DNA of 34,185 bases. Origin: a virus (lineage: Duplodnaviria; Caudoviricetes). Location of the stretch: positions 1 through 34,185 of IMG/VR virus record IMGVR_UViG_3300032332_000488. One strand, 5' to 3'. Position 1 is the first letter of the stretch. Each line of letters starts with the position of its first letter. The position numbers were made by a program, and so were the translations under genes. The notes under the pieces are model-generated. The model saw only the letters and a program-made list of their open reading frames with translations, was not told where the DNA came from and did not search any database. Shown here in pieces: positions 725 through 22,484 of the stretch.

Positions 725-2944
725 TTAGAACCTCACTCGTAGTTCATGTTCAAATTCAAACGTGTTAACTACAAACCCTGGGTCTGTAGAAGTCATTGTC
801 AGACCCAAATACTTACCGTATTGCTGGGCATCTGATTTATAAAGAGCATAACCGTTACTTGTCAACCAGCCAATAGTGGCGTTGGAATTATTTTTCCAAG
901 TAATAGTTGTCCCTGAATTGTTGTACCACGTAACTGTGTTGTTCAGCACGTAGGTAGGACTGGAGCCACTTTCGCTATCCACTGTCACGTTGAATGTGCC
1001 ACCAGTGGTAAGCGTAGCCTCAATACCAAACTTCAAAGCCTGCTTGGTACGGATAGGGTCTTTCATGGGCGACAAAGCCGTCTGTATCTTGCTAGACACG
1101 TTGGCAGTCGAGCTGGCATATAGCTTATACAACGACTTGTCCGCAACCCCGTACAGGTTGATGACACCGCTGACAGGCGCAGAAGTTGTGTATGTGATTG
1201 CGCCTTGGCTGGTGATAAACCACTTTTTCTCAAAGAACACCACCTGGATGTACCGCCCACCTGTTGCATACGGGTAGGTGGACTTGAGGTAGAAATTGAA
1301 TGCAGCGCACAGGATGTTGTTGAGCAACACCTGACCGCCAGTGACAGGCAGGGTGAAATCTATGTACGGGAACAGACCATCTAGCTGGTCAGAAATCTTG
1401 CTGGTGGTAGAACCTACCAGCGCATATATGCCGTAGTTGTTCATAAACAGCACACTGCGGAAGTAAGGGAAAACCCCATACCGCAAGTTACTGCCTACGC
1501 TGGCACTGACGTTAGTGTTCGTAAACAGGGTTGAGCCAGTAGTAGAAACACGCAGGTCAGAGAAGACGTTGATGCTGTCTTCACCAAAAATGTAGAGGAA
1601 GTTGTTTGCCGACAGCAGAGACTTAATGTTGCCGTGCAAGGTTGAGTCTGTTATCGGGAAGTTTCCGGCAGACACAGAGGTGAAGTCACTGTAGCTACCA
1701 GCCGCAGAATAGTAAACGGTACGCCCTGCCGCCACCCAAGTGCGTCCTGAGAAAGTGGCAACAGAGGCAATCTCATCACTGTTGAGGATGACAGTACCTG
1801 CTGCGTTAGAGCCAGAACCACCAAAAGTGACAGTGCCAGCCGCCGTATATCCACTACCAGGGTTGTTCATAATCACTTGCGTGACTGCACCACCGCTCAC
1901 AATGGCAGTGGCATTTGCGCCAGAGCCACTTGTGCCAGTTACTGTGACGTAGAAAGAACCGCTAGCCCCATATCCAGAACCGCCGTTAGTTACCAGCACA
2001 GACAGTGTGCCAGTCTTGAACGTGACAAGCTGACAAATGGCAGTAGCTCCACTGCCGCTACCGCCTGTTAAAGTGATGGTGGGAGGTGAGGTATAGCCTG
2101 TTCCAGCGTTTGTAAGGGTGATGGAGTTGACCGTACCCTTGGTTAACACGGCTGTGGCAGTGGCAGCCCCAGTAGAAAAGCCAACTGTGGGCACATTCAA
2201 ATAGCCCGAGCCTGGGACAGTCACCGTAACCGCAACAACCGCACCGCCAGAAATAGTGGCAACTGCTTGAGCTTGTGTTCCACCCTGCACATCTGGGGCA
2301 GTGATGGTCACGCCAGGCACGGCGGTGTACGCAGCTCCCCCAGCAGTTACGTTAATGCTGGTGATACCACCTGCGCCTGTAGTGATAGTTGCTTCTGCTG
2401 TAGCCTGTATGCCGCCAGTATCGTTAGGGGCGCTGATAACCACAGATGGTGCTGCTAGGTATCCAGAACCAGGGTTTGTGATGCCGATAGAGCCGACAGA
2501 CCCCATAGAGACTAGGTTTGTGCCATCCCAGTTAGACAATCCCTTTGTCGGGTCACCAATGATGACACGCTCATTCTTGTATTGAGCGGTGGAGACATTG
2601 GCACTGGAGAACGTGCCTGTTACAGCCACATTGCCTTTTGTGGAACTGGTCAGGTTGAAGTATTCAGCCCGTCCGTTGTCCTCAAAAGACAAGATGTAGT
2701 CACTGACATTGATGTTGGCAGATTCCAATGAGGTAGTCGTGTTGGCATACACCACGGCATTGCCGCCAGAGTCCAGCACGGCAGATTGAGCCTGAACAAT
2801 CTTGATGTTGCCAAACCCGATAGGCTGGGCATTCTCTATCCAGGAGAACTCTTCTTCATCAATTGCCGTTCGGTTAGCCTTTGTGTTTAGGCCTTTGAAG
2901 TTCTTGATGACAGCATAGGACTTTTTTTGCTCTGCTGCTGCCAT
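725..2944 (-). CDS. Podovirus tail nozzle / DNA-stabilisation (P22 gp10-like) protein with inserted Gly/Thr-rich repeats
   Basis: 739 aa, follows the adaptor. N-terminal NFKGLN motif, beta-rich body, and six repeats of the form VTNxGSGY..xPTVTI in the middle. Confidence 0.6.
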   Translation of the reverse strand: MAAAEQKKSYAVIKNFKGLNTKANRTAIDEEEFSWIENAQPIGFGNIKIVQAQSAVLDSGGNAVVYANTTTSLESANINVSDYILSFEDNGRAEYFNLTSSTKGNVAVTGTFSSANVSTAQYKNERVIIGDPTKGLSNWDGTNLVSMGSVGSIGITNPGSGYLAAPSVVISAPNDTGGIQATAEATITTGAGGITSINVTAGGAAYTAVPGVTITAPDVQGGTQAQAVATISGGAVVAVTVTVPGSGYLNVPTVGFSTGAATATAVLTKGTVNSITLTNAGTGYTSPPTITLTGGSGSGATAICQLVTFKTGTLSVLVTNGGSGYGASGSFYVTVTGTSGSGANATAIVSGGAVTQVIMNNPGSGYTAAGTVTFGGSGSNAAGTVILNSDEIASVATFSGRTWVAAGRTVYYSAAGSYSDFTSVSAGNFPITDSTLHGNIKSLLSANNFLYIFGEDSINVFSDLRVSTTGSTLFTNTNVSASVGSNLRYGVFPYFRSVLFMNNYGIYALVGSTTSKISDQLDGLFPYIDFTLPVTGGQVLLNNILCAAFNFYLKSTYPYATGGRYIQVVFFEKKWFITSQGAITYTTSAPVSGVINLYGVADKSLYKLYASSTANVSSKIQTALSPMKDPIRTKQALKFGIEATLTTGGTFNVTVDSESGSSPTYVLNNTVTWYNNSGTTITWKNNSNATIGWLTSNGYALYKSDAQQYGKYLGLTMTSTDPGFVVNTFEFEHELRVRF

Positions 2945-2946
2945 GA

Positions 2947-3789
2947 TTAGTACGGAGTTGAGTAGGGGTCTGGAATACGCCGTGTGAAGGTGCTGTTAAG
3001 CACGGCATTCACATGCTTCAGATATTCTTGCTTGTAAATCTCTGCTTCACCATAGCTCTGCTCTTTGTACTTGGCTTTGTAAGCCGCATAGAAAGCCACA
3101 GGTGTGGTGTAGGGGTCATTGATAGGGTCAGTGACAGACGGGTCTGTCGCAACTAAAGGCGTTGGCAGAATGGTGCTGTCAATCTCTATGGGATAAGACT
3201 GGTCAGGCACAGGCCCGATATAAATCTGAGATTGTCCATAGACTGAAAAACACACAGGTCTGCCAACATAGTTTTGCCAATACCGCAACTGGGCATTGAA
3301 GTTTGACCAAGGCAAGTAGCGCAGGGGGATGCGACTGTTGCCCCAGTAAAGCGTGATGTTCAGAATGTCTAGCGTTGTTCCCGCACTGAGAATTGCATAC
3401 GGAATAATCTCAGCAGGGCCGGAGTATTGCAAGGTTGCCGTTCCATCTGTGAACGGGGTGCTGGGGGGAAATGTGTAGTTAGCGGCAGGGTAGGGAGGCG
3501 CAGTTGTACCCAGTACGCCACCTGTAACTACTTGATAGATGAAAATGTTGCTGAATACAAAGTCACCAGCAATGACAGTTGCTCCAGCAGTCCAGACAGT
3601 CGCAGGTACACCCGTACTAGATATGGGTGTGCTAGAAATTTGAAGTGTGCGTAAACAGCCGGTATCTCTCGCTACTCTCTCACGGGCGCTATTTATATCG
3701 TCCGTTAGTTCAGCGTCTGACCAGAAGACACCATTGGCATCATGCAAGAGCCGCCGGACTTCCGAGATGTAGGAAGTGAGAGTTGCCAT
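2947..3789 (-). CDS. Head-tail adaptor/connector protein
   Basis: 280 aa; TL..YI.EVRRLL.D...W.DAEL...IN N-terminus and IYIGPVPDQ motif typical of podophage adaptors; lies between head and nozzle genes. Confidence 0.6.
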   Translation of the reverse strand: MATLTSYISEVRRLLHDANGVFWSDAELTDDINSARERVARDTGCLRTLQISSTPISSTGVPATVWTAGATVIAGDFVFSNIFIYQVVTGGVLGTTAPPYPAANYTFPPSTPFTDGTATLQYSGPAEIIPYAILSAGTTLDILNITLYWGNSRIPLRYLPWSNFNAQLRYWQNYVGRPVCFSVYGQSQIYIGPVPDQSYPIEIDSTILPTPLVATDPSVTDPINDPYTTPVAFYAAYKAKYKEQSYGEAEIYKQEYLKHVNAVLNSTFTRRIPDPYSTPY

Positions 3790-9679: not shown

Positions 9680-10069
9680 TTACCCTCTTAGTGCTTCGTC
9701 AAGTGTGATTTCTGAATAGTCATGGCGGTTAACCATGCCGACTTTTAGTTTTATGCCCCCTGATGTGACCTGTAAACCCATGCTTGCCATCATTGGTGGC
9801 TTGCTTTCCTTCCTGTATTCCACGTATCTTGTCCTGTCTTTGTTCTGCATAACCCGCACATTGCCGCTTTTCCACTGCTGGTAGGCCTTGCTGACCCTGA
9901 TTTGCACCACTTCAGTGAGCGGTTCTTTGTCTCTGACGAACACATCTAGGAAGTGAGCCATTGACATACCCGCCAATTCGCAAAACAAGTTGATAGAGAT
10001 ACCCCTATCTTTGTCCGCATGGAAGCGTTTAATCTGGCGTTTGAGTTCAAACTTGGACAGGGACTTCAT
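9680..10069 (-). CDS. Hypothetical protein, possible HTH DNA-binding N-terminus
   Basis: GISINLFCELAGMS resembles a helix-turn-helix; 129 aa. Confidence 0.55.
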   Translation of the reverse strand: MKSLSKFELKRQIKRFHADKDRGISINLFCELAGMSMAHFLDVFVRDKEPLTEVVQIRVSKAYQQWKSGNVRVMQNKDRTRYVEYRKESKPPMMASMGLQVTSGGIKLKVGMVNRHDYSEITLDEALRG

Positions 10070-10862
10070 ATTTGTACTCCACCGTATAGCCTGTGGACTG
10101 CAAGTAGTCCAGAAACTCTATCTCACCGTATGCTTTTGAAACGTCAGCAGGGACAATGATGTGGTCATCATCCATGAGCTTCCTGCTTTGGGCGTGACAG
10201 CCTAGCAGCCTATCAAATGCAAAGCCTTCTTCGTGAAATCCTCGGCCTACATATTCCATTGAGAAGTATTTGGCAATGTGGTCAGGTGCATATCTGTACC
10301 CCAGGTACTGCAACTGAGGCTTGAGCAAGGCAGAGAGTTGGGCATCCTCGTTCCATCCATGTATGTCGTTGGCTTGTAGATGGGTAATCCCATGCTTATT
10401 GCAAGCAGACAAGAAACGCTTAGAGCGCAGGGAAAACCCCCCGTTTTGCACCACCCGCACACCAGGAATGCCCACCCAAGTAAAGTTCAAGTAAAGGTTG
10501 TACGCCTCGCCCTGGGGCAAGAAAGCGCAGTGTGAGGGTGCTCCTATGTAATCGTACTCATAGTATTCCGGCATGAAATTGTCGCCATCCAGCACCCAGC
10601 CGTCATCTTGAACTATCAGGCAATACTCTGTGTCTATGAATGCGTAGAGCTGGTGCATCATAAAAACAGAATACTGAAGGTAGTTGATAAACCCTATCTG
10701 CTTCCACTCTATGTTGTCTGGCAAGTTGTCTGGCTTTGCAATAGACAACAGCAGCCCTTTAGAGCCAGGTAACTCTTTCATACTGCGCTTGATACTGGGT
10801 ATAACGCTGGCCCCGTTGTTATGCCCATAAACAGACACGATGGTTAGGTCATTGTGTTCCAT
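10047..10862 (-). CDS. DUF5672-like putative glycosyltransferase
   Basis: LIVQDDGWV, YDYIGAP, NGGFSLRS and NED motifs; start moved to ATG 10862 (MEHNDLTIVSV), overlapping the terminase end. Confidence 0.65.
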   Translation of the reverse strand: MEHNDLTIVSVYGHNNGASVIPSIKRSMKELPGSKGLLLSIAKPDNLPDNIEWKQIGFINYLQYSVFMMHQLYAFIDTEYCLIVQDDGWVLDGDNFMPEYYEYDYIGAPSHCAFLPQGEAYNLYLNFTWVGIPGVRVVQNGGFSLRSKRFLSACNKHGITHLQANDIHGWNEDAQLSALLKPQLQYLGYRYAPDHIAKYFSMEYVGRGFHEEGFAFDRLLGCHAQSRKLMDDDHIIVPADVSKAYGEIEFLDYLQSTGYTVEYKYEVPVQV

Positions 10863-12606
10863 ACATTCCAATCCTTTTAAGGTAGTCGCTGACGTTTCTG
10901 CCCACAGAGATTTGTTCAGGTGTAAAGTTTTCCTGTGCATGACTGATTTGCCGGGTAATCTTTTGGGCAATGAGTCTGGGTTGTATCTGCTCTGCAAAGG
11001 CTACACAAGCCAGAGCAGTAGCAATCACACGGTCATCCTTGCCCCTACCCGGCGCACCCAGGAAGGAACCCTCCCGCACGATGCCCTTCATTTCTTCAAG
11101 AGTCTCCATGCTGCGTATCTTTATCATCTGCCTCTCAAAGTAATCCTTCATGTACTGCAACATGCGCTCTTTGGAATTGGTTGTGGTCAGGTAACCAATG
11201 CTATTAGAAAGCCCCCCAAGCGTGTCATTGCGCCTCCAAATGTAGTTGGTCATACTACCTAGCACGTCCATCAACCCATGCCCCATAGCGCCTCCTAACG
11301 AGACTGCCATGCGCTTCAAGTTCCGTATCTCATTGATGACTGCTTGACCAGGGCCGTTGACTTCCAGGTTCAGCGTAGAGTTCTTGTATGCGCCAGCAAG
11401 GTGGGCGATGACCCACGCAAACTGGTAGGTGTTCATCTCAGAAGTGGCAAACTCAGCAACTTGGTCAAGTCCATCTGCGTAGCATCTGTAGACCTGGATG
11501 CAGAATCTATCTGCCCAATCAGAGCTACCGTAAGCGGGGTCAGCACCGATAACGTAATAAGCAGTGTCAACAGGTTCTTCCCAGACCGTGAGTGTGCCCA
11601 GTCTTTCAGTGGACTTAATGACTTCAGTGTCTTGGAACAGTTGTCCAAAAGCATAGCGATAGTGGTCTGGTACAAGTTTCTTGGCCTCTTTAGCTGCCTC
11701 TGTGCAGCGGGTGGTTGAGAAGAAGGATGTGCCTGTCATCACAAAGGCATAGTCCTCAGTTGGGGGGAACTCTTGGTACATCAAGGATTCGTCTTTGATA
11801 CCTTCGTGCATTTTCCACCGCCACCAAGCCATTTGCCGGGAGTTGACCTCAAAGCCGTAGAGCTTCTTAATGTCTTTCACCCACTCCTTCTCTTCCGCAC
11901 TGAGCTTGCCATCCCAGTAGACCTTGTAGATGTTGGAGTCGCCAGGGACAGAGTAGAACTCATTTCTCCACCAGCCGCAAAAGATGGCTCTCTGTGTCTT
12001 TGCTTTCTTAGCGGTCTTGTACATGTCGTGGAACATGTTGAAGCCCTGCGCTGTACTCTCAAACATGTAAAGCCGCTCAGGGTTCTTTTCAGCAAGAGAA
12101 GCTATCAGGGAAGCTAGACCCTCTTCATTTCCCCAGGAAGCTGTTTCAGTGCCGTGCAAATAGGTTATGGCTTTACCCTGACCCAGACGAGACTTATTGC
12201 CAGCAATCTGATAAAAAATACGACTTCTGTTTTTGAGAACCATCTGGTTTCTGTTGTGAGCGACCAAAGGAATTTTGTATTCTTTCGGTAACCCTTCCAT
12301 GTACATAGCGAGAGTCGAACGAAACATATCCCTGTTTTCTTCTGTATCCGCAACCAGCGTACCTTGCCATCCGGGATGAGTGAACTGCCAATAGAGGTCA
12401 AGCGCCAGAGAAACAGTTGTGATACCCAACTGACGGCCTTTGAGAATGACAAAGAAGTGGACATCATCTTCTAGACCTTTTTTGATTTCCTCCATCACAT
12501 ACGTCTGAGTCCCCAAGAGGGTTCCCATCTTCTTCAAGCCCTCTTCCTTTGTCTCAATCTTGAGTTCGGAACAGAACTTGTAAAACTTGTTTAGGTCAAA
12601 GTTCAT
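10849..12606 (-). CDS. terL: Terminase large subunit
   Basis: 585 aa; Walker A ILKGRQLGITT, Walker B YLHGTE, ESTAQG coupling motif, nuclease YVIGADPA and DDRVIA. Confidence 0.95.
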   Translation of the reverse strand: MNFDLNKFYKFCSELKIETKEEGLKKMGTLLGTQTYVMEEIKKGLEDDVHFFVILKGRQLGITTVSLALDLYWQFTHPGWQGTLVADTEENRDMFRSTLAMYMEGLPKEYKIPLVAHNRNQMVLKNRSRIFYQIAGNKSRLGQGKAITYLHGTETASWGNEEGLASLIASLAEKNPERLYMFESTAQGFNMFHDMYKTAKKAKTQRAIFCGWWRNEFYSVPGDSNIYKVYWDGKLSAEEKEWVKDIKKLYGFEVNSRQMAWWRWKMHEGIKDESLMYQEFPPTEDYAFVMTGTSFFSTTRCTEAAKEAKKLVPDHYRYAFGQLFQDTEVIKSTERLGTLTVWEEPVDTAYYVIGADPAYGSSDWADRFCIQVYRCYADGLDQVAEFATSEMNTYQFAWVIAHLAGAYKNSTLNLEVNGPGQAVINEIRNLKRMAVSLGGAMGHGLMDVLGSMTNYIWRRNDTLGGLSNSIGYLTTTNSKERMLQYMKDYFERQMIKIRSMETLEEMKGIVREGSFLGAPGRGKDDRVIATALACVAFAEQIQPRLIAQKITRQISHAQENFTPEQISVGRNVSDYLKRIGMYGTQ

Positions 12607-13193: not shown

Positions 13194-13228
13194 CTAACCC
13201 TCTATACAGATAACGCTATATTACAGAC

Positions 13229-13257
13229 AAAAAAAGAGCTACGCAAGTGGTAGCTCT
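13229..13257 (-). terminator. Rho-independent terminator
   Basis: Minus strand AGAGCTAC-7 nt loop-GTAGCTCT followed by a T run. Confidence 0.75.
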
Positions 13258-13349
13258 AAGTTCTAGAAGAACGATGACAAACACGGCTGGGGACTGTTTG
13301 CGGAACTACTGTCTAGACGGTAGCCAATCCCCATGCGTGTTAGCACATG
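13229..13349 (-). ncRNA. Candidate free-standing small RNA with CI/C4-like junction fold
   Basis: AACACG-CA-TGGGGATTG ... CAGTCCCCA-GC-CGTGTT stalk enclosing a hairpin and single-stranded TTCCGCAAA; bounded by an extended -10 and a terminator. Confidence 0.6.
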
Positions 13350-13355
13350 CCAGCT

Positions 13356-13364
13356 ATCCTACCA
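13356..13364 (-). promoter_or_regulatory. Extended -10 promoter for the candidate sRNA
   Basis: Minus strand TG-G-TAGGAT about 14 nt upstream of the stalk. Confidence 0.4.
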
Positions 13365-13370
13365 GAAACC

Positions 13371-13700
13371 ATATTTTTTTTGGGGGGGACGAGATGTGGG
13401 GTGCTCACCTCACCAGACTCCGTAACCCATCGCTCAGGCCACGGCGCTGCTTGTGCTTGTGCTTGTGCGGTAGTTGTCCCGACCCAACCCGATAACGTGC
13501 ATGGTAGCGCACTAGGTGCATGGTACTGGTGCGGTAAAGCATACCCCATGCCAAACCCCATGTAATTCCCGGTGGGCGGTAGGTGATAAACCCTTGTCGA
13601 ATCAATAAACCCGAACTCAGGATACATTACAGAACTATAAGACAATAAATTATAAAGACAATAAACATAGTAGTCTTATATATATTATATACCCTACTGT
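13371..13700. repeat. Divergent intergenic region with short repeats and AT-rich tract (candidate origin or packaging/terminus region)
   Basis: T8G7 at 13374-13388; (GCTTGT)x3 at 13449-13466; GTGCATGGTA x2 (13497, 13516); ACCCCATG x2 (13543, 13555); AAGACAATAAA x2 (13639, 13655); TA tract 13677-13691. Confidence 0.55.
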
Positions 13701-13786
13701 ATACAACGGGTGCATCCACAAAAGTATTCATAGGCAAAACCTAACATCACCTGATTGACGATAGAAATATTTATGAAAAATAGTGC

Positions 13787-13814
13787 TTGACAGGTTAATA
13801 TATACCGGTACACT
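13787..13814 (+). promoter_or_regulatory. Early sigma70-like promoter
   Basis: TTGACA-N16-TACACT with AT-rich upstream sequence, 60 nt before the first plus-strand gene. Confidence 0.65.
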
Positions 13815-13873
13815 AGGTCAAAAAAAGCAAGCGAGACAGTCAGTAACCTAACCTAACCTAATCGGAGCATAGT

Positions 13874-14242: not shown

Positions 14243-14869
14243 ATGCAATTTTCAGTGCAACGCAAACAGTTGAAGGCCATGTCACGTTTCATGGCAGTGA
14301 AGGACATTCGCTATTACTTGCAAGGCATTCAAGTAGTACAAAACAATAGGGGCACTTACATTGAATCGACAAATGGGCACGTATTGGGCAGACTCTTGAT
14401 TGACGAAACCCCGTGTGCAGTGGCAGCTAGTGTACTTGTGCCTAGTGATGCAGTGAAGGCATTGGGCGCTAGTGGCAGAAAAGGGAATGAAACGCTACAT
14501 TTCACTATTGATGGGGTGAAAATCAGTGTCATTTCCCCTGATGGGTCAAGCATGACGGTTCAAGCGCACCAGGCACGTTATCCCGATTGTGACCGTGTAG
14601 TCCCTGAAATTTACAACGACACACCTAGTGAGTGCAGCACTTACAACCCTGAATACATCATGGCATTTTATGATTGTGCAAAGGACTTGGGTTCAAGTGG
14701 CAAGGGTGTTGCAGTGCAGATAAAGCAAAGGGGCAGTCAGTCCGGCATTGTAATGATTGACAGTGACCCTCTGTTTGTCGGCATCATCATGCCTATGCGT
14801 GAACACAATACAGTAACGATACCGGCATGGTGCACACGTGCTAAGACCCTGGAAACAGTGACGGCATAA
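14243..14869 (+). CDS. DNA polymerase III beta-clamp-like protein (short, 208 aa)
   Basis: KDIRYYLQGI, STNGHVL, RYPDCDRVVP, YNPEYI and GIIMPMR match DnaN signature segments. Confidence 0.8.
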   Translation: MQFSVQRKQLKAMSRFMAVKDIRYYLQGIQVVQNNRGTYIESTNGHVLGRLLIDETPCAVAASVLVPSDAVKALGASGRKGNETLHFTIDGVKISVISPDGSSMTVQAHQARYPDCDRVVPEIYNDTPSECSTYNPEYIMAFYDCAKDLGSSGKGVAVQIKQRGSQSGIVMIDSDPLFVGIIMPMREHNTVTIPAWCTRAKTLETVTA

Positions 14870-17592: not shown

Positions 17593-17808
17593 ATGAAATT
17601 CTGTATTGATTGCAAACATTTTGCGATGGAGAAGCACTCCATCAACCCTGAGGTTGGCAGATGCACCGTCATACGTGCCACAAGCCTTGTAACGGGGCTT
17701 ATCGTGCCTCTTGATACATTGCCCTTCTGCGCCATACAACGCTGCTCTACCAAGCCCTGCGGCCCTGATGCAAATCTGTTTGAAGAGAAGGAGGCCAGCA
17801 ATGTCTGA
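17593..17808 (+). CDS. Cys-rich small protein
   Basis: MKFCIDCKHF...C...C...R....CGPDA.LFE; SD AAGGA. Confidence 0.7.
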   Translation: MKFCIDCKHFAMEKHSINPEVGRCTVIRATSLVTGLIVPLDTLPFCAIQRCSTKPCGPDANLFEEKEASNV

Positions 17809-18694
17809 CTTCAGCCCTGAAACAAGAAACTCAGCATGGTGGTCAGGAGACAGTCGCCGTGCTGCCAGTGGCAAAGCCAACGAGGTCATACTCACAAAGC
17901 AGGGCAAGATGGAGATTCCAGACCTGTCCGGCATAGAAGCTGTGCAGATGGGACACGTGATGGAGCCTGTCATCGCAAGCCTAGCCAGCGAGAAACTGGG
18001 TGTGCGGCTGGAGAAGATTGAGGAAGCTCTCACGCACCCTAAACATCCTTGGCTGAAATCACACTTTGACTACCACGGGAAACTCAATGGCGAAACTATC
18101 TTGGTTGAGTGTAAAAATTACAACGCTGCGGTTAGAAATAAGTTTGATGAAAGCGGCCTCATCCCTGCTGCTGACATGGCTCAGATTGTCCACGAAGCGG
18201 CGGTATACGGCGTACGGAAAATTTATCTGGCTGTGCTATTTGGTGGTCAAGAGTTTGTCCTTATTCCGTTTGAAATCACTGACGAGCAAAAAGAAGAACT
18301 TATCAAGCAGATGGCGGTCTACTGGGGGCACTGCCAAGCAGGAACTCAGCTACCGCCAGAGACTCCTGAACAGGCAAGACTGATATACCCCACAGGGCTG
18401 GACAACACCAAGATGGCCTCCAGGAGCGTAGAAGAGGCTTGCCGCACCCTTGCTATTGTCAAGGGTCAGATAAAGGCTCTAGAGGCCCAGGAAGCGGCTC
18501 TGATGACCCTTGTGCAAGGTTACATGGGGGAATGCAACCAACTCGCTACTTTTGACGGCTCTGTGCTGGCAACCTGGAAGAACGCTAAACACAGTGAGAA
18601 GTTTGACAGCAAGCTGTTTCAGTCTGCCATGCCGGATGTGTACGAGAAGTTTGTGGTCAACGTGCCGGGTTCACGGAGGTTCTTAGTCAAATGA
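17801..18694 (+). CDS. YqaJ-like (lambda-exonuclease family) nuclease
   Basis: GHVMEPVI, HPWLKSHFD, LVECKN and Q..H motifs; start at ATG 17801 behind AAGGAGG. Confidence 0.85.
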   Translation: MSDFSPETRNSAWWSGDSRRAASGKANEVILTKQGKMEIPDLSGIEAVQMGHVMEPVIASLASEKLGVRLEKIEEALTHPKHPWLKSHFDYHGKLNGETILVECKNYNAAVRNKFDESGLIPAADMAQIVHEAAVYGVRKIYLAVLFGGQEFVLIPFEITDEQKEELIKQMAVYWGHCQAGTQLPPETPEQARLIYPTGLDNTKMASRSVEEACRTLAIVKGQIKALEAQEAALMTLVQGYMGECNQLATFDGSVLATWKNAKHSEKFDSKLFQSAMPDVYEKFVVNVPGSRRFLVK

Positions 18695-18888: not shown

Positions 18889-18961
18889 CTGGAGCATCTA
18901 CGTCATGGCCTTTTGTTCCCTGATTGAACTAACCATAACTGTATTGGAAAAACTACTATGA
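18881..18961 (+). CDS. 26-aa hydrophobic peptide
   Basis: SD GGAGG; MTNWSIYVMAFCSLIELTITVLEKLL; stop overlaps the HNH start (ATGA). Confidence 0.5.
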   Translation: MTNWSIYVMAFCSLIELTITVLEKLL

Positions 18962-19377
18962 AAGATATTGTTGGATATGAAGGGCTGTACGCAGTCACTG
19001 AAGATGGGATGGTGTGGGCTTACCCGAATAGGATTCACAAAGGAAAATTCCTAAAACCGTCTTTGAAAAAAGGTTATCCGTTTGTTTGTTTGTGTAAGGG
19101 TTCAGAGATAAAGCAATTTTCGATTCACCGTTTGGTTGCCGAAGCCTACTTGCCTAATTTTGACTCTTTGCCTCAAGTCAATCACATTGATAGCAACAAA
19201 GAAAACAACCATGTTTCTAACCTTGAATGGTGTAGCGCCAGCCAAAACAAAAAACATTCTTGGGATTCTGGAACATCATTTGTTACCCCAGCAAAAAGAG
19301 AGGCATCTCGCCGTAACGCTTACATAGCACACAACACCTGGAGAAATAAACATGAGCAACATCGTAGCGGTATCTGA
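18958..19377 (+). CDS. HNH homing endonuclease (NUMOD4-like N-terminus)
   Basis: KDIVGYEGLYAV, HRLVAEAY, VNHIDSNKENNHVSNLEW. Confidence 0.9.
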   Translation: MKDIVGYEGLYAVTEDGMVWAYPNRIHKGKFLKPSLKKGYPFVCLCKGSEIKQFSIHRLVAEAYLPNFDSLPQVNHIDSNKENNHVSNLEWCSASQNKKHSWDSGTSFVTPAKREASRRNAYIAHNTWRNKHEQHRSGI

Positions 19378-20206
19378 TATGCAGGTGATGGCAGAGTCCA
19401 TCGTTAAATCAAACTTCTATGGTTTCAAAACCAAAGAGCAAGTCATGGCTGTCATGCTTGTCGCACAAGCAGAAGGCAAACATCCTGCTACTGTTGTGCA
19501 AGAGTACGACATTATTCAGGGCAGACCAGCGTTGAAATCACAGGCTTTGCTTGCAAGATTTCAAATGGCTGGTGGCAAAGTGGAATGGCAAGAAGTATCT
19601 GCCAAGCGATGCTGCGGCACTTTTTCACATCCTCTGGGCGGCAGTCTCACGATTGAGTGGACGATTGAAATGGCAAGGCAAGCTGGTCTTGTTCGGGATA
19701 ATTCTGGATGGACTAAGTTTCCTGAAGACATGCTCTCTGCCAGGGTCATCAGTCGTGCTGTCCGCAAGGTTTACCCTGGTTGCATCTTGGGTCACTACGC
19801 AGTAGAAGAGGTCATGGATTTTGAGCCTCGCAAACCATTAAACATGGGGCCTGTAGAGCGAGTGGAAGAAGTGCAGGCAGAAGAAGTTGTGGCAGATGGG
19901 GCATATCACCTCTTCATTCCAGGCAACGACAAGCCGTATGCCAGCTACCACACCACAGACGAATGGATAGAGGGTTACTGCTTGATGGTTAACCGCATCT
20001 CTGTGTCACCTAAATTCTCTGATGCTGAGAAGACTGAGAAGCTGGACTTGTTGAAGCAGTCAAACTTACCCATCACCGCTGAGTTTGACGCATACACAAA
20101 CATCAAGCTGAAAGGCGAGATTGTCAAAGCTGGTGGGAGCATCACTCCCCCAAAGCCAGAACCCCTGCCACCAACAGGTTCGGAACTCAACGAGCCAATA
20201 TTTTGA
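19352..20206 (+). CDS. RecT/Bet-like single-strand annealing protein
   Basis: IIQGRPAL, W.K.PEDML.AR.ISRAVR..YP; partner of the YqaJ nuclease. Confidence 0.75.
   Translation: MSNIVAVSDMQVMAESIVKSNFYGFKTKEQVMAVMLVAQAEGKHPATVVQEYDIIQGRPALKSQALLARFQMAGGKVEWQEVSAKRCCGTFSHPLGGSLTIEWTIEMARQAGLVRDNSGWTKFPEDMLSARVISRAVRKVYPGCILGHYAVEEVMDFEPRKPLNMGPVERVEEVQAEEVVADGAYHLFIPGNDKPYASYHTTDEWIEGYCLMVNRISVSPKFSDAEKTEKLDLLKQSNLPITAEFDAYTNIKLKGEIVKAGGSITPPKPEPLPPTGSELNEPIF
20135..20181 (+). promoter_or_regulatory. Candidate -1 programmed ribosomal frameshift signal
   Basis: Internal SD-like GGGAG (20135-20139), in-frame heptamer C CCA AAG (20149-20155), 3' stem-loop 20159-20181. Confidence 0.55.
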
Positions 20207-20391
20207 ATCACCTGGAAAACATTGGGCCGCTAACACCCAGAGAGGCACTAGACAACTATGGCAGCTTCAGGTTGGCGGCACATATCGAATATCTCAGGCG
20301 GCAGGGATACCCAATCCACACTTCAATGGTTTCTCAAGGTGGCAAAGACTTTGCCAAATACTCACTACGAAAGGAAAACAATGGCCTCTAA
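20149..20391 (+). CDS. Winged helix-turn-helix domain (probably reached by frameshift from the annealase; alternative TTG start at 20203)
   Basis: GTQRANILNHL...GPLTPREAL..YG.FRLAAHI..LR..GY.I wHTH pattern begins upstream of the only start codon. Confidence 0.7.
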   Translation, partial: PKARTPATNRFGTQRANILNHLENIGPLTPREALDNYGSFRLAAHIEYLRRQGYPIHTSMVSQGGKDFAKYSLRKENNGL

Positions 20392-20680
20392 TCCACACCA
20401 AGAACAACCCGGCATGGGTGTGTGCTACTGGGAGGAAGAATCCCAGCGCAAGTCACCCAAAGGGCCAGACTTCAAAGGCTTTGTCGTTCTGGAAATGGAC
20501 TACAAAGCTGGCGAGAAGTTGAAGCTGGCACTGTGGCAAAAGCCTACCAGCCGGGGTTACAACCTGCTGGCAGTCAAGGAAGACAACTGGCTCAAGAAGA
20601 AGAAGCTGGAAGAGGGCAGACCTACAGAGGTTGCGCCTCGCTACAGTGTCAGAAAAGACGATAACGACATTCCCTTCTGA
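20381..20680 (+). CDS. SSB-like protein
   Basis: ATG 20381 with SD AAGGA; PDFKG motif and acidic DDNDIPF tail typical of SSBs. Confidence 0.6.
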   Translation: MASNPHQEQPGMGVCYWEEESQRKSPKGPDFKGFVVLEMDYKAGEKLKLALWQKPTSRGYNLLAVKEDNWLKKKKLEEGRPTEVAPRYSVRKDDNDIPF

Positions 20681-21003
20681 TGGCTAACAAAATCACACCT
20701 ACCCAGAGAAGTCTTGCGTACCTACGGGAGCAAGGATACTTAGTCGCAATTGTTGAACACTGGAATCCGTTTGCCAGGATACGACAAGACCTCTGGGGAT
20801 GGTGTGACCTCTTGTGCATCCGCAAAGGGGAAATTCTGGCTGTGCAAGTCACTGCAAGTGCCGTGTCTACCAGGATAAAGAAGATACAGGATTCAGATAC
20901 CGTGCAGCATGTGCGGGATGCTGGCATCCGTATAGAAGTGCATGGGTGGAGAAAATCCACTAAGACCAACAAGTATGTTTTAAGAATTGAGGATATATCG
21001 TGA
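20680..21003 (+). CDS. PD-(D/E)XK nuclease / Holliday-junction-resolvase-like protein
   Basis: LREQGY.V, DL.G.CDLL, LAVQVT pattern. Confidence 0.65.
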   Translation: MANKITPTQRSLAYLREQGYLVAIVEHWNPFARIRQDLWGWCDLLCIRKGEILAVQVTASAVSTRIKKIQDSDTVQHVRDAGIRIEVHGWRKSTKTNKYVLRIEDIS

Positions 21004-21258: not shown

Positions 21259-22005
21259 ATGAGCAAAGCACACATCTTTATCGCAACCCCTATGTATGGC
21301 GGCATGTGTACCGGGTACTTCACCCAGTCACTGCTGACCGCCGCTGGGGTACTGCGCCAGCATGACTACGACATGAGCTTTAGCTGCATGTTTAACGAGA
21401 GCCTTATCCAGCGAGGCAGGAACGCACTTGCACACGGGTTCATGCAAAAGAAGGAAGCGACCCACTTAATGTTCATAGATGCAGATATTCGCTTCAATCC
21501 AGCAGACATTGTGAAGATGGTGGAAGCTGACGTTGATGTTATTTGTGGCATGTATCCCAAGAAGGAAATCAACTGGGCAGGTGTTGAGCAAGCCGTGAAA
21601 GAAGGTGTGCCGCAAGACCAGCTTAAGACCCGCACAGGTTCTCTAGTGGTTAATCTGGTGGACTATAAGGGTGCAGTCACTGTACCTGCTGACAAGCCTG
21701 TAGAGATATGGAATGGCGGTACAGGGTTCATGCTCATCAAGCGAGAGGTGCTGGAGAAGCTCTCTACCCTCATGCCAAGCTATGTCAATGACGTAACCTT
21801 CCTGGACGGCACTATCAAGCAAGACCGTATCGTTGAATACTTTGCTTGCGGAATTGAACCGGGTACAGAGCGCCTATTGTCAGAGGACTACTATTTCTGC
21901 ATCAAGTGCCGTGAGCATGGCATCAAGGTGTATGCCGCACCCTGGGCAGTCTTGGGCCACTTTGGGACATACTTGTTTGAGGGCGGCTTGCTGCCAGCGC
22001 CATGA
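21259..22005 (+). CDS. GT-A fold glycosyltransferase-like protein
   Basis: IATPMYGG, ESLIQRGRN, THLMFIDADI (DxD), GTGFMLIKREV, LSEDYYFC. Confidence 0.75.
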   Translation: MSKAHIFIATPMYGGMCTGYFTQSLLTAAGVLRQHDYDMSFSCMFNESLIQRGRNALAHGFMQKKEATHLMFIDADIRFNPADIVKMVEADVDVICGMYPKKEINWAGVEQAVKEGVPQDQLKTRTGSLVVNLVDYKGAVTVPADKPVEIWNGGTGFMLIKREVLEKLSTLMPSYVNDVTFLDGTIKQDRIVEYFACGIEPGTERLLSEDYYFCIKCREHGIKVYAAPWAVLGHFGTYLFEGGLLPAP

Positions 22006-22484
22006 CGATAGCTCTGGACTTGGGGTGCGGTAGCAGATACCGCAACCACTACAACGCTGACATTCTTACTGGGTTAGACCAGTTTCCCGTGGCTGACATA
22101 CAAGCTGACTTGGTGTGGGAGCCTATTCCTCTCGCAGACAATTCTTATGACTACATCACAGCGTTTGACTTCATAGAGCATATCCCACGGGTTGTCTATG
22201 TGGACAAACAAGCAAAGTACCCGTTCATAGACCTGATGAACGAGATATGGCGTGTGCTTGTGCCGGGCGGCCTGTTCTACTCATCTACTCCGGCATTCCC
22301 ACATCCAGCGGCTTTTCAAGACCCTACACATGTCAACATCATCACGCCAGATACCTGGGGTGAATACTTTGATGACAAGAAGCGGTGGGCCAGTGTGTAT
22401 GGCTTTAAGGGTGCATTTCACATTGAGAGCATGGGCTACTTAAACCAGCACTTGCAGTGTGAGATGCGGAAGGTCAGCGTCTAG
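22002..22484 (+). CDS. Class I SAM-dependent methyltransferase (type 11-like)
   Basis: LDLGCG, IEHIP, EIWRVLVPGG, DPTHV. Confidence 0.85.
   Translation: MTIALDLGCGSRYRNHYNADILTGLDQFPVADIQADLVWEPIPLADNSYDYITAFDFIEHIPRVVYVDKQAKYPFIDLMNEIWRVLVPGGLFYSSTPAFPHPAAFQDPTHVNIITPDTWGEYFDDKKRWASVYGFKGAFHIESMGYLNQHLQCEMRKVSV

Follow-up and report, generated by a model that had tools for sequence, protein, structure and literature searches.

A programmed −1 frameshift very probably operates at the end of the gene for a RecT/Red-beta-type annealase in the window, by which we mean the whole 34,185-nucleotide stretch of phage DNA analysed here; the claim is made from this DNA and its relatives. The initial annotation had predicted a −1 shift, stimulated by an internal Shine-Dalgarno (SD)-like element, that fuses the annealase to a winged helix-turn-helix (wHTH) and gives two products, and this prediction is strongly supported by conservation among homologues. 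The signal for the shift is genuine and highly conserved, whereas the hairpin and the function are less secure. Comparison of the loci establishes the signal, the relation between the two reading frames, the encoded domain and the conservation of each.

Genome setting and the annealase

The window is a complete podovirus-like phage genome, because a 123-bp terminal repeat is found at the ends of the 34-kb sequence and genes for a terminase, an SU10-type portal and a major capsid protein are encoded in it (Pfam and PHROG HMM scans). Near-identical DNA is present in freshwater metagenomes, and the capsid protein is 89-93% shared with two GenBank spring-water phages. The early region on the + strand is composed of a YqaJ exonuclease, a small ORF, an HNH gene, the RecT-like annealase, the HTH, a probable SSB, a 107-aa ORF and a glycosyltransferase-like gene, an order retained in relatives. 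The YqaJ/RecE-like exonuclease (17804..18694, + strand; PF09588, E 1.1e-8; phrog_434, E 1e-43) is the likely partner of the annealase. Between the two lies a NUMOD4-HNH endonuclease (18958..19377, + strand; PF07463, PF13392), a slot filled by other ORFs in relatives according to the neighbourhood comparison.

The product of the ORF at 20381..20680 (+ strand) is probably a small ssDNA-binding protein whose C-terminal tip is acidic. The assignment is by synteny: the ORF lies behind the HTH in the neighbourhoods inspected and itself gave no Pfam or PHROG match, the syntenic ORFs of L237 match phrog_18154 (ssDNA-binding), and DUF736, carried by 10% of cluster members, is the Atlas lead. Two tandem SSB-like paralogues stand behind the HTH in the clade of L237 (2700-3156) and L350 (3053-3500). 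The 107-aa ORF (20680..21003, + strand), with no Pfam or PHROG match of its own, is possibly a junction resolvase, a candidacy suggested by position only, as L041 has RusA (PF05866) in the same slot.

No initiator, primase, helicase or polymerase was found in HMM scans of 23, 27 and 36 window ORFs, an absence by profile only. A sliding-clamp-like protein is encoded at 14243-14869 (PF02767 weak, phrog_947) in this genome without detected polymerase, primase or helicase. About 680 bp between the divergent arms (13194-13873) hold no convincing gene and contain a T8-G6 run, short tandem repeats and an AT-rich part, making this stretch a candidate control or origin region. Glycosyltransferase-like (21259-22484, phrog_1574) and methyltransferase (10047-10997) genes follow the recombination module; together with the label dpG-synthase-like on the homologue in MW202753.1, they hint at DNA modification.

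The annealase (19352..20206, + strand; 284 aa in the 0 frame) was identified from PF03837 (24.5 bits, just above the cut-off of 24), phrog_561 (E 8e-21), a structural model and Foldseek, whose top matches are the Red-beta N-terminal domain (7ujl, E 9e-4) and LiRecT (7ub2, E 7e-3). An N-terminal annealing domain and a nearby YqaJ-like exonuclease, in the same order in relatives, were both seen, as is typical of the RecT/Red-beta class. In the model, an annealing domain (residues ~1-155) is followed by a linker, a β-hairpin plus helical domain (~185-260) and a disordered acidic tail, in which the frameshift site sits. The helical domain (~200-260 in the model) gives only generic bundle matches (Z ≤ 6.3), as against the three-helix bundle of the Red-beta C-terminal domain, and structure and profile comparison yielded no named family for it.

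The predicted products are 284 aa (0 frame) and 346 aa (−1 fusion). Downstream of the site the 0 frame encodes an acidic tail in 147 of 153 junctions, often with a terminal Phe, and the −1 product is basic. This acidity is partly forced by the overlap of the frames; even so, the acidic tail of the short form probably has a use of its own, because 4/4 short-tail and 18/29 cassette-less representatives also end acidic.

Frameshift signal and its conservation

As the initial annotation had it, annealase codons 267 (CCA, 20150) and 268 (AAG, 20153) form part of a slippery heptamer C CCA AAG (20149..20155, + strand), preceded by an SD-like GGGAG (20135..20139, + strand; anti-SD duplex energy −6.2 kcal/mol), the predicted −1 stimulator, with 9 nt between the two. 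The −1 frame is open from 20089, after the TGA at 20086, to the TAA at 20389-20391 and contains no ATG, GTG or TTG before TTG 20203, and the wHTH pattern begins ahead of that TTG, Pfam HTH_39 matching from profile position 1 at 20185; on all these points the earlier description holds. From 20152 to 20187 (+ strand) the −1 frame encodes a linker that the 0-frame tail overlaps, and substitutions are synonymous in the −1 frame from here on. The 0-frame stop TGA (20204..20206, + strand) overlaps a conserved Leu codon (TTG 20203) of HTH helix 1. In-frame X XXA AAR occurs only three times in the 8027 codons of 27 window genes, and the RecT one is the only one that scores an SD (one of the other two, at codon 7, was not scored). 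An in-frame A AAA AAG is located at codons 7-8 of the tail gene (725-2944, − strand), near its start, where the −1 frame is open for 17 codons.

In E. coli, C_CC.A_AA.G, G_GG.A_AA.G and A_AA.A_AA.G are given as the most efficient −1 motifs, and reported shifting on C_CC.A_AA.G ranges from ~0.3% for the bare motif to 54% with an IS3 pseudoknot (PMC4066793). The three heptamers found in our junctions include two of these three (PMC4066793), and the SD spacing of 9-10 nt at these loci agrees with the published range for −1 stimulation, 9-14 nt (PMC5009743).

Loci were gathered by scans with RecT and HTH queries and from GenBank. Removal of 172 duplicates, 21 loci with too little flank and 14 without RecT reduced 433 loci to 226 distinct RecT ends; L079 was excluded as indel-ridden and L095 and L228 as cut contigs, and L253 (T TTA AAT, no SD) was treated as chance. 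The HTH lies directly behind RecT in 153 of the 226 ends, always in −1, never in frame and never in +1. Every one of these junctions carries the heptamer (C CCA AAG 130, C CCA AAA 15, A AAA AAG 8) and the HTH mostly lacks an ATG or SD of its own, so that the predicted fusion withstands comparison with homologues, the 153 being kin-related and partly found by HTH queries and hence not 153 independent events. After reduction to <80% protein identity, 43/43 junctions carry X XXA AAR with a −1 HTH, and a scan using RecT patterns only gave the same picture as the scans with HTH queries. A later scan using the L108-type RecT (28% identical to that of the window) added four more junctions, all with the signal, for a total of 157 related junctions, from freshwater where the habitat is recorded.

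Such heptamers are rare by chance in these genes. Away from the junction, 30 related RecT genes have an in-frame heptamer of whatever type at 16 of 7231 codons, and only 2 of 32 other Pro-Lys pairs in these genes read C CCA AAR. A AAA AAG substitutes for C CCA AAG in two separate contexts (L049/L237/L283/L284 and L435-L437), so it is slipperiness that is kept, not Pro-Lys. The A-site codon is AAG rather than AAA in 138/153 junctions, as compared with 300:219 elsewhere in these genes, a preference that would fit a host with a single tRNA-Lys.

The SD is present in 142/153 junctions. Anti-SD energy is ≤ −4.5 kcal/mol in 27 of 30 divergent loci versus 16% of 6878 in-phase control windows; it peaks in windows ending 6-10 nt upstream of the heptamer, and in most loci the core stops 8-10 nt short of the heptamer. 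The element is built from different codons by lineage (Gly-Val, Gly-Gly, Gly-Ser or Glu), and its Gly codons are GGA or GGG in 24/26 cases versus 166/488 (34%) elsewhere. The position of the shift is bracketed, because a −1 stop lies within two codons 5′ of the heptamer in 26/153 junctions and the 0-frame stop comes 6-20 codons after it. Substitutions synonymous only in frame 0 versus only in frame −1 number 39:2 upstream, 7:11 and 4:14 in the overlap, and 5:86 in the HTH; as read from these counts, the frame under selection changes at the heptamer, from 0 to −1.

Where RecT has no HTH behind it, the signal is almost always missing too; the exception is one group with a different −1 tail. No heptamer opens the −1 frame past the stop in 46 HTH-less RecT ends used as a control, and none of 50 ends without the HTH from a second RecT subfamily has X XXA AAR. 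A quick tree, used for this purpose only and with 34 of its 73 branches open, shows a patchy distribution of the cassette (10 changes). Many relatives, including MW202753.1, lack the cassette, which is therefore dispensable for the phage group. In L350 (MW202825.1), the region 2847-3056 contains the SD, C CCA AAG and a 69-codon −1 frame, of which GenBank annotates only a 37-aa HTH stub.

No natural in-frame RecT-HTH fusion was found among the 226 RecT ends. A search for longer HTH proteins returned three singletons, among them P0002, in which RecT is joined to the HTH via ~30 garbled residues, and P0001, in which the HTH is joined to the next gene; both were read as assembly indels. No annealase of 498-2000 aa was found, and the best 120 of 6645 annealase matches are 280-291 aa long and have no PF14090. 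All these searches argue only weakly that joined proteins are absent. A GTDB scan gave 17 distant RecT loci, none with an HTH.

The exceptional group comprises 26 HTH-less RecT ends, from about three lineages, that have a heptamer in the corresponding position (C CCA AAC 22, C CCA AAG 4), along with an SD-like element and 52-60 open codons in the −1 frame (for example L286:2283-2462, L300:1330-1509, L343:2301-2477 and L305:2328-2483, with 22 more loci). In 25 of the 26, the 16 codons after the stop show 17 synonymous third-position, 15 non-synonymous and no second-position changes, a pattern resembling that of coding DNA. A GTG overlapping the RecT stop is often GTA, several of the loci fold a strong stem 6-8 nt downstream, the later part of the tail overlaps the SSB-like gene, and an HMM scan gave no family match for the tail. 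The short −1 tail is likely a second payload on the same cassette, which we regard as a lead.

The cassette also occurs behind another type of annealase. L108 (2171-3043) and L434-L437 have the N-terminus of the other RecT subfamily (28% identical to the window) with the same helical domain, cassette and HTH, from which it follows that the C-terminal module passes from one annealase to another. Even among close relatives of the window, an HTH of 95-100% identity goes with differing N-terminal halves.

The 3′ structure is less constant. The initial annotation had named a stem-loop GAA-CC-CCTG/CAGG-TTC just downstream as a stimulator, a role it does not appear to have: the stem can form (7 pairs, −4.7 kcal/mol, z −1.74) but is weak, is broken in relatives without family-wide conservation, and loses in context to a 6-bp hairpin at 20177..20196 (+ strand), close relatives keeping 57/63 of its pair cells versus 54/54 for the hairpin. 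The latter begins 21 nt after the heptamer (−10.4 kcal/mol, z −2.9) and belongs to the window's own clade, where all 6 pairs are kept in 16/16 sequences, with one-sided changes only. RNAalifold gave no pairs on 40 sequences across the family, and per-locus z for positions +7 to +46 averages −0.2, with 2/30 below −1.5. An H-type pseudoknot guessed from the alignment was rejected, having 47% of cells paired versus 48% in shuffles. The L219 clade (16 sequences) has a strong 11-bp stem 6 nt downstream with one compensatory change, and the L001 clade a weaker 6-bp stem. A 3′ stem-loop or pseudoknot is described as an inconstant part of prokaryotic −1 signals (PMC4066793). Judging from the aligned loci, the common stimulator is the SD, and the 3′ stems, which differ by lineage, probably tune the level of shifting in each.

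Role of the winged helix and competing explanations

The wHTH (HTH_39) occupies 20185..20391 (+ strand) of the −1 frame and matches PF14090 over positions 1-69 of 70 (E 3.5e-11, 44.1 bits versus a cut-off of 21.3). Its model (pLDDT 88.8) is composed of three helices and a β wing, with wHTH fold matches of Z up to 8.5; no sequence relative was found among solved structures. From its fold and charge, the domain is predicted to bind DNA.

The reading that we prefer, and hold to be likely from the comparative evidence, is that an SD-stimulated −1 shift yields a minority of wHTH-bearing subunits predicted to tether annealase oligomers to duplex DNA for recombination-primed replication. Its first step can be proposed with high confidence: 16S rRNA would pair with GGGAG during decoding of CCA-AAG, and tRNA-Pro and tRNA-Lys would re-pair on CCC-AAA, so that a 346-aa product accompanies the 284-aa one. 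The shift would replace the acidic tail of 17 residues by a basic extension of 79 residues, made up of linker and winged helix, with a minority yield that we put at a few to tens of percent. It is reasonably likely that both forms would co-assemble through their shared N-terminal domain, a few subunits per oligomer showing the wHTH and most keeping the acidic tail; mixed oligomers of mostly acidic-tail subunits would also explain why no in-frame fusion is seen.

More tentatively, the wHTH could give the oligomer a grip on preformed duplex and so place the set of exonuclease, annealase and SSB at a replication-priming site. Red-beta is reported to bind no preformed duplex, and its C-terminal domain contacts the exonuclease and possibly SSB (PMC9512822). 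Such placing, which is possible but somewhat doubtful, would concern a phage without detected initiator, primase or helicase. In JC1 a free HTH_39 gene stands before those for an initiator and a loader, in 587AP2 before a P-like loader module and in CRP-227 before a primase gene; the neighbours in NK-7 carry no annotation. A replication role was suggested for the JC1 HTH_39 gene product (PMC9144972). It is gene context only that points to a role in priming replication, and we put this role forward with some hesitation.

The same frameshift could instead serve transcriptional autoregulation, the long form sensing the annealase level at an early promoter, or the recruitment of a protein, which we think rather unlikely. 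The folds nearest to the HTH, whose matches name no function, belong for the most part to regulators of transcription and to small DNA-binding proteins from viruses or plasmids. The recognition helix has His in 142/153 fused domains, in place of the Arg of most free relatives (108/150), so DNA binding may be changed, yet the domain stays basic (mean net +4.2). Partner recruitment as a common theme is suggested by the short peptide tail of the second group, which cannot be a folded DNA-binding domain. Against both variants, a free HTH_39 gene opens the replication module in each of the three isolated phages with annotated neighbours, and fusion to the annealase offers a repressor no obvious gain over separate encoding.

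That the HTH is instead a separate small protein, made by termination-reinitiation at a TTG or ATG overlapping the annealase stop, with the heptamer a conserved Pro-Lys, is very improbable. The window does have a TTGA overlap, and the TTG-started ORF passes the HTH_39 cut-off (35.8 bits), although it covers PF14090 positions 8-69 only. Such a start would cut helix 1, because this helix spans 20188-20223 in the model (residues 4-15) and TTG 20203 is inside it. The codon at this position is TTG in 92 of the 153 junctions and ATG in one, but CTG (41), CTA (13), TTA (5) or CTT (1) in 60, and 48 junctions have no start codon at all up to the Leu of helix 1. An SD before this Leu codon is found in 17/153, the background level (−2.2 kcal/mol in the window), and selection on the −1 frame begins upstream of the TTG. 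The Pro is replaced by Lys or by an Ala/Asp/Glu context in the A AAA AAG lineages. At loci where the HTH stands free, an ATG precedes the helix-1 Gln by 2-6 codons in 15/15 cases, and 147/150 library relatives of the HTH begin at or before this Gln, which starts helix 1. Among the junctions, an ATG is found inside helix 1 in 15/153, including the L144/L204/L207 group with its ATGA overlap, and a start at or before the helix-1 Gln in 11/153, several being a GTG right after A AAA AAG; all of these still keep the heptamer. Because of these TTGA overlaps, ATG codons and early starts, a free HTH may additionally be made by reinitiation in some lineages.

Transcriptional slippage, assembly error and a decayed in-frame fusion are nearly excluded at the DNA level: a C5-A3 run is present in the window (20147-20154), but most relatives have only C3-A3, far below the runs of 9 cited for slippage (PMC5009743), the same −1 relation and no other is found in 153/153 assemblies, an independent DNA contig crosses the frameshift site without gaps, and the HTH is under purifying selection.

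Relation to known systems and significance

The SD-stimulated −1 shift is mechanistically of the known dnaX/IS kind. In E. coli dnaX and the IS911/IS3 family, as here, X XXA AAR is decoded by tRNA-Lys, an SD lies 9-14 nt upstream and two products share an N-terminus, and the A AAA AAG of the dnaX/IS type itself is used in 8 of the 153 relatives (PMC4066793, PMC5009743). The differences are that the dnaX shift truncates its product whereas that of the phage annealase adds a domain, that no family-wide 3′ stem or pseudoknot was found for the annealase signal, and that the gene concerned is a phage annealase. In its outcome the shift resembles phage capsid extensions: in T7/T3 gene 10, the head and tail proteins of Lactobacillus A2, Listeria A118/A500 and lambda G-T, a late shift likewise appends a domain to a share of an oligomeric protein (PMC5009743). 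Those extensions are on virion or assembly proteins and are often Ig-like (PMC5009743), in contrast to the winged helix on a recombination protein seen here, and the phage frameshifts reviewed in this source are mostly in virion and tail-assembly genes (PMC5009743).

Lambda Red-beta and RecT (Red, RecET) resemble the window's annealase in having an N-terminal annealing fold, a flexible linker, a small helical C-terminal domain and an exonuclease gene upstream, but no alternative C-terminus produced by recoding was found for them in the literature searched. JC1 gp18 of a Burkholderia phage belongs to the same Pfam family, HTH_39, as the fused HTH and lies in a DNA-metabolism module (PMC9144972). 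Free HTH_39 proteins have their own ATG and precede an initiator/loader or a primase, whereas the fused domain, which lies behind RecT in −1, lacks a conserved start.

No frameshifted annealase was found by listings in the literature searched, a scope that left aside subscription papers and the supplement tables of PMC4066793 (69 clusters, 5 from prophages). RecT is mentioned neither in the text and two of the three supplements of the GeneTack paper (PMC3711429) nor in the text or supplement of the PRFect paper. The use of such a shift on a recombinase appears new.

The annealase junction shows the clearest comparative marks of recoding, namely heptamer swaps, an SD built from different codons and a switch in the frame under selection. 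Current annotation misses the extended annealase, as the stub listed in MW202825.1 illustrates. The shift would provide an extra domain for a protein class employed in recombineering, in which the host range of the annealase is reported to be set by C-terminal contacts (10.1101/2020.04.14.041095). At its broadest, and as a rather unlikely extension, the SD-heptamer may be a modular switch that builds mixed oligomers with a swappable payload, a winged helix or a short peptide; the long form would then be the missing replication initiator, and recoding would set the ratio of annealing to initiation in widespread freshwater phages without a rep, primase or helicase gene. Tethering of the annealase through its frameshifted subunits would in this way offer a route to the start of replication in small phages that have no recognisable initiator.
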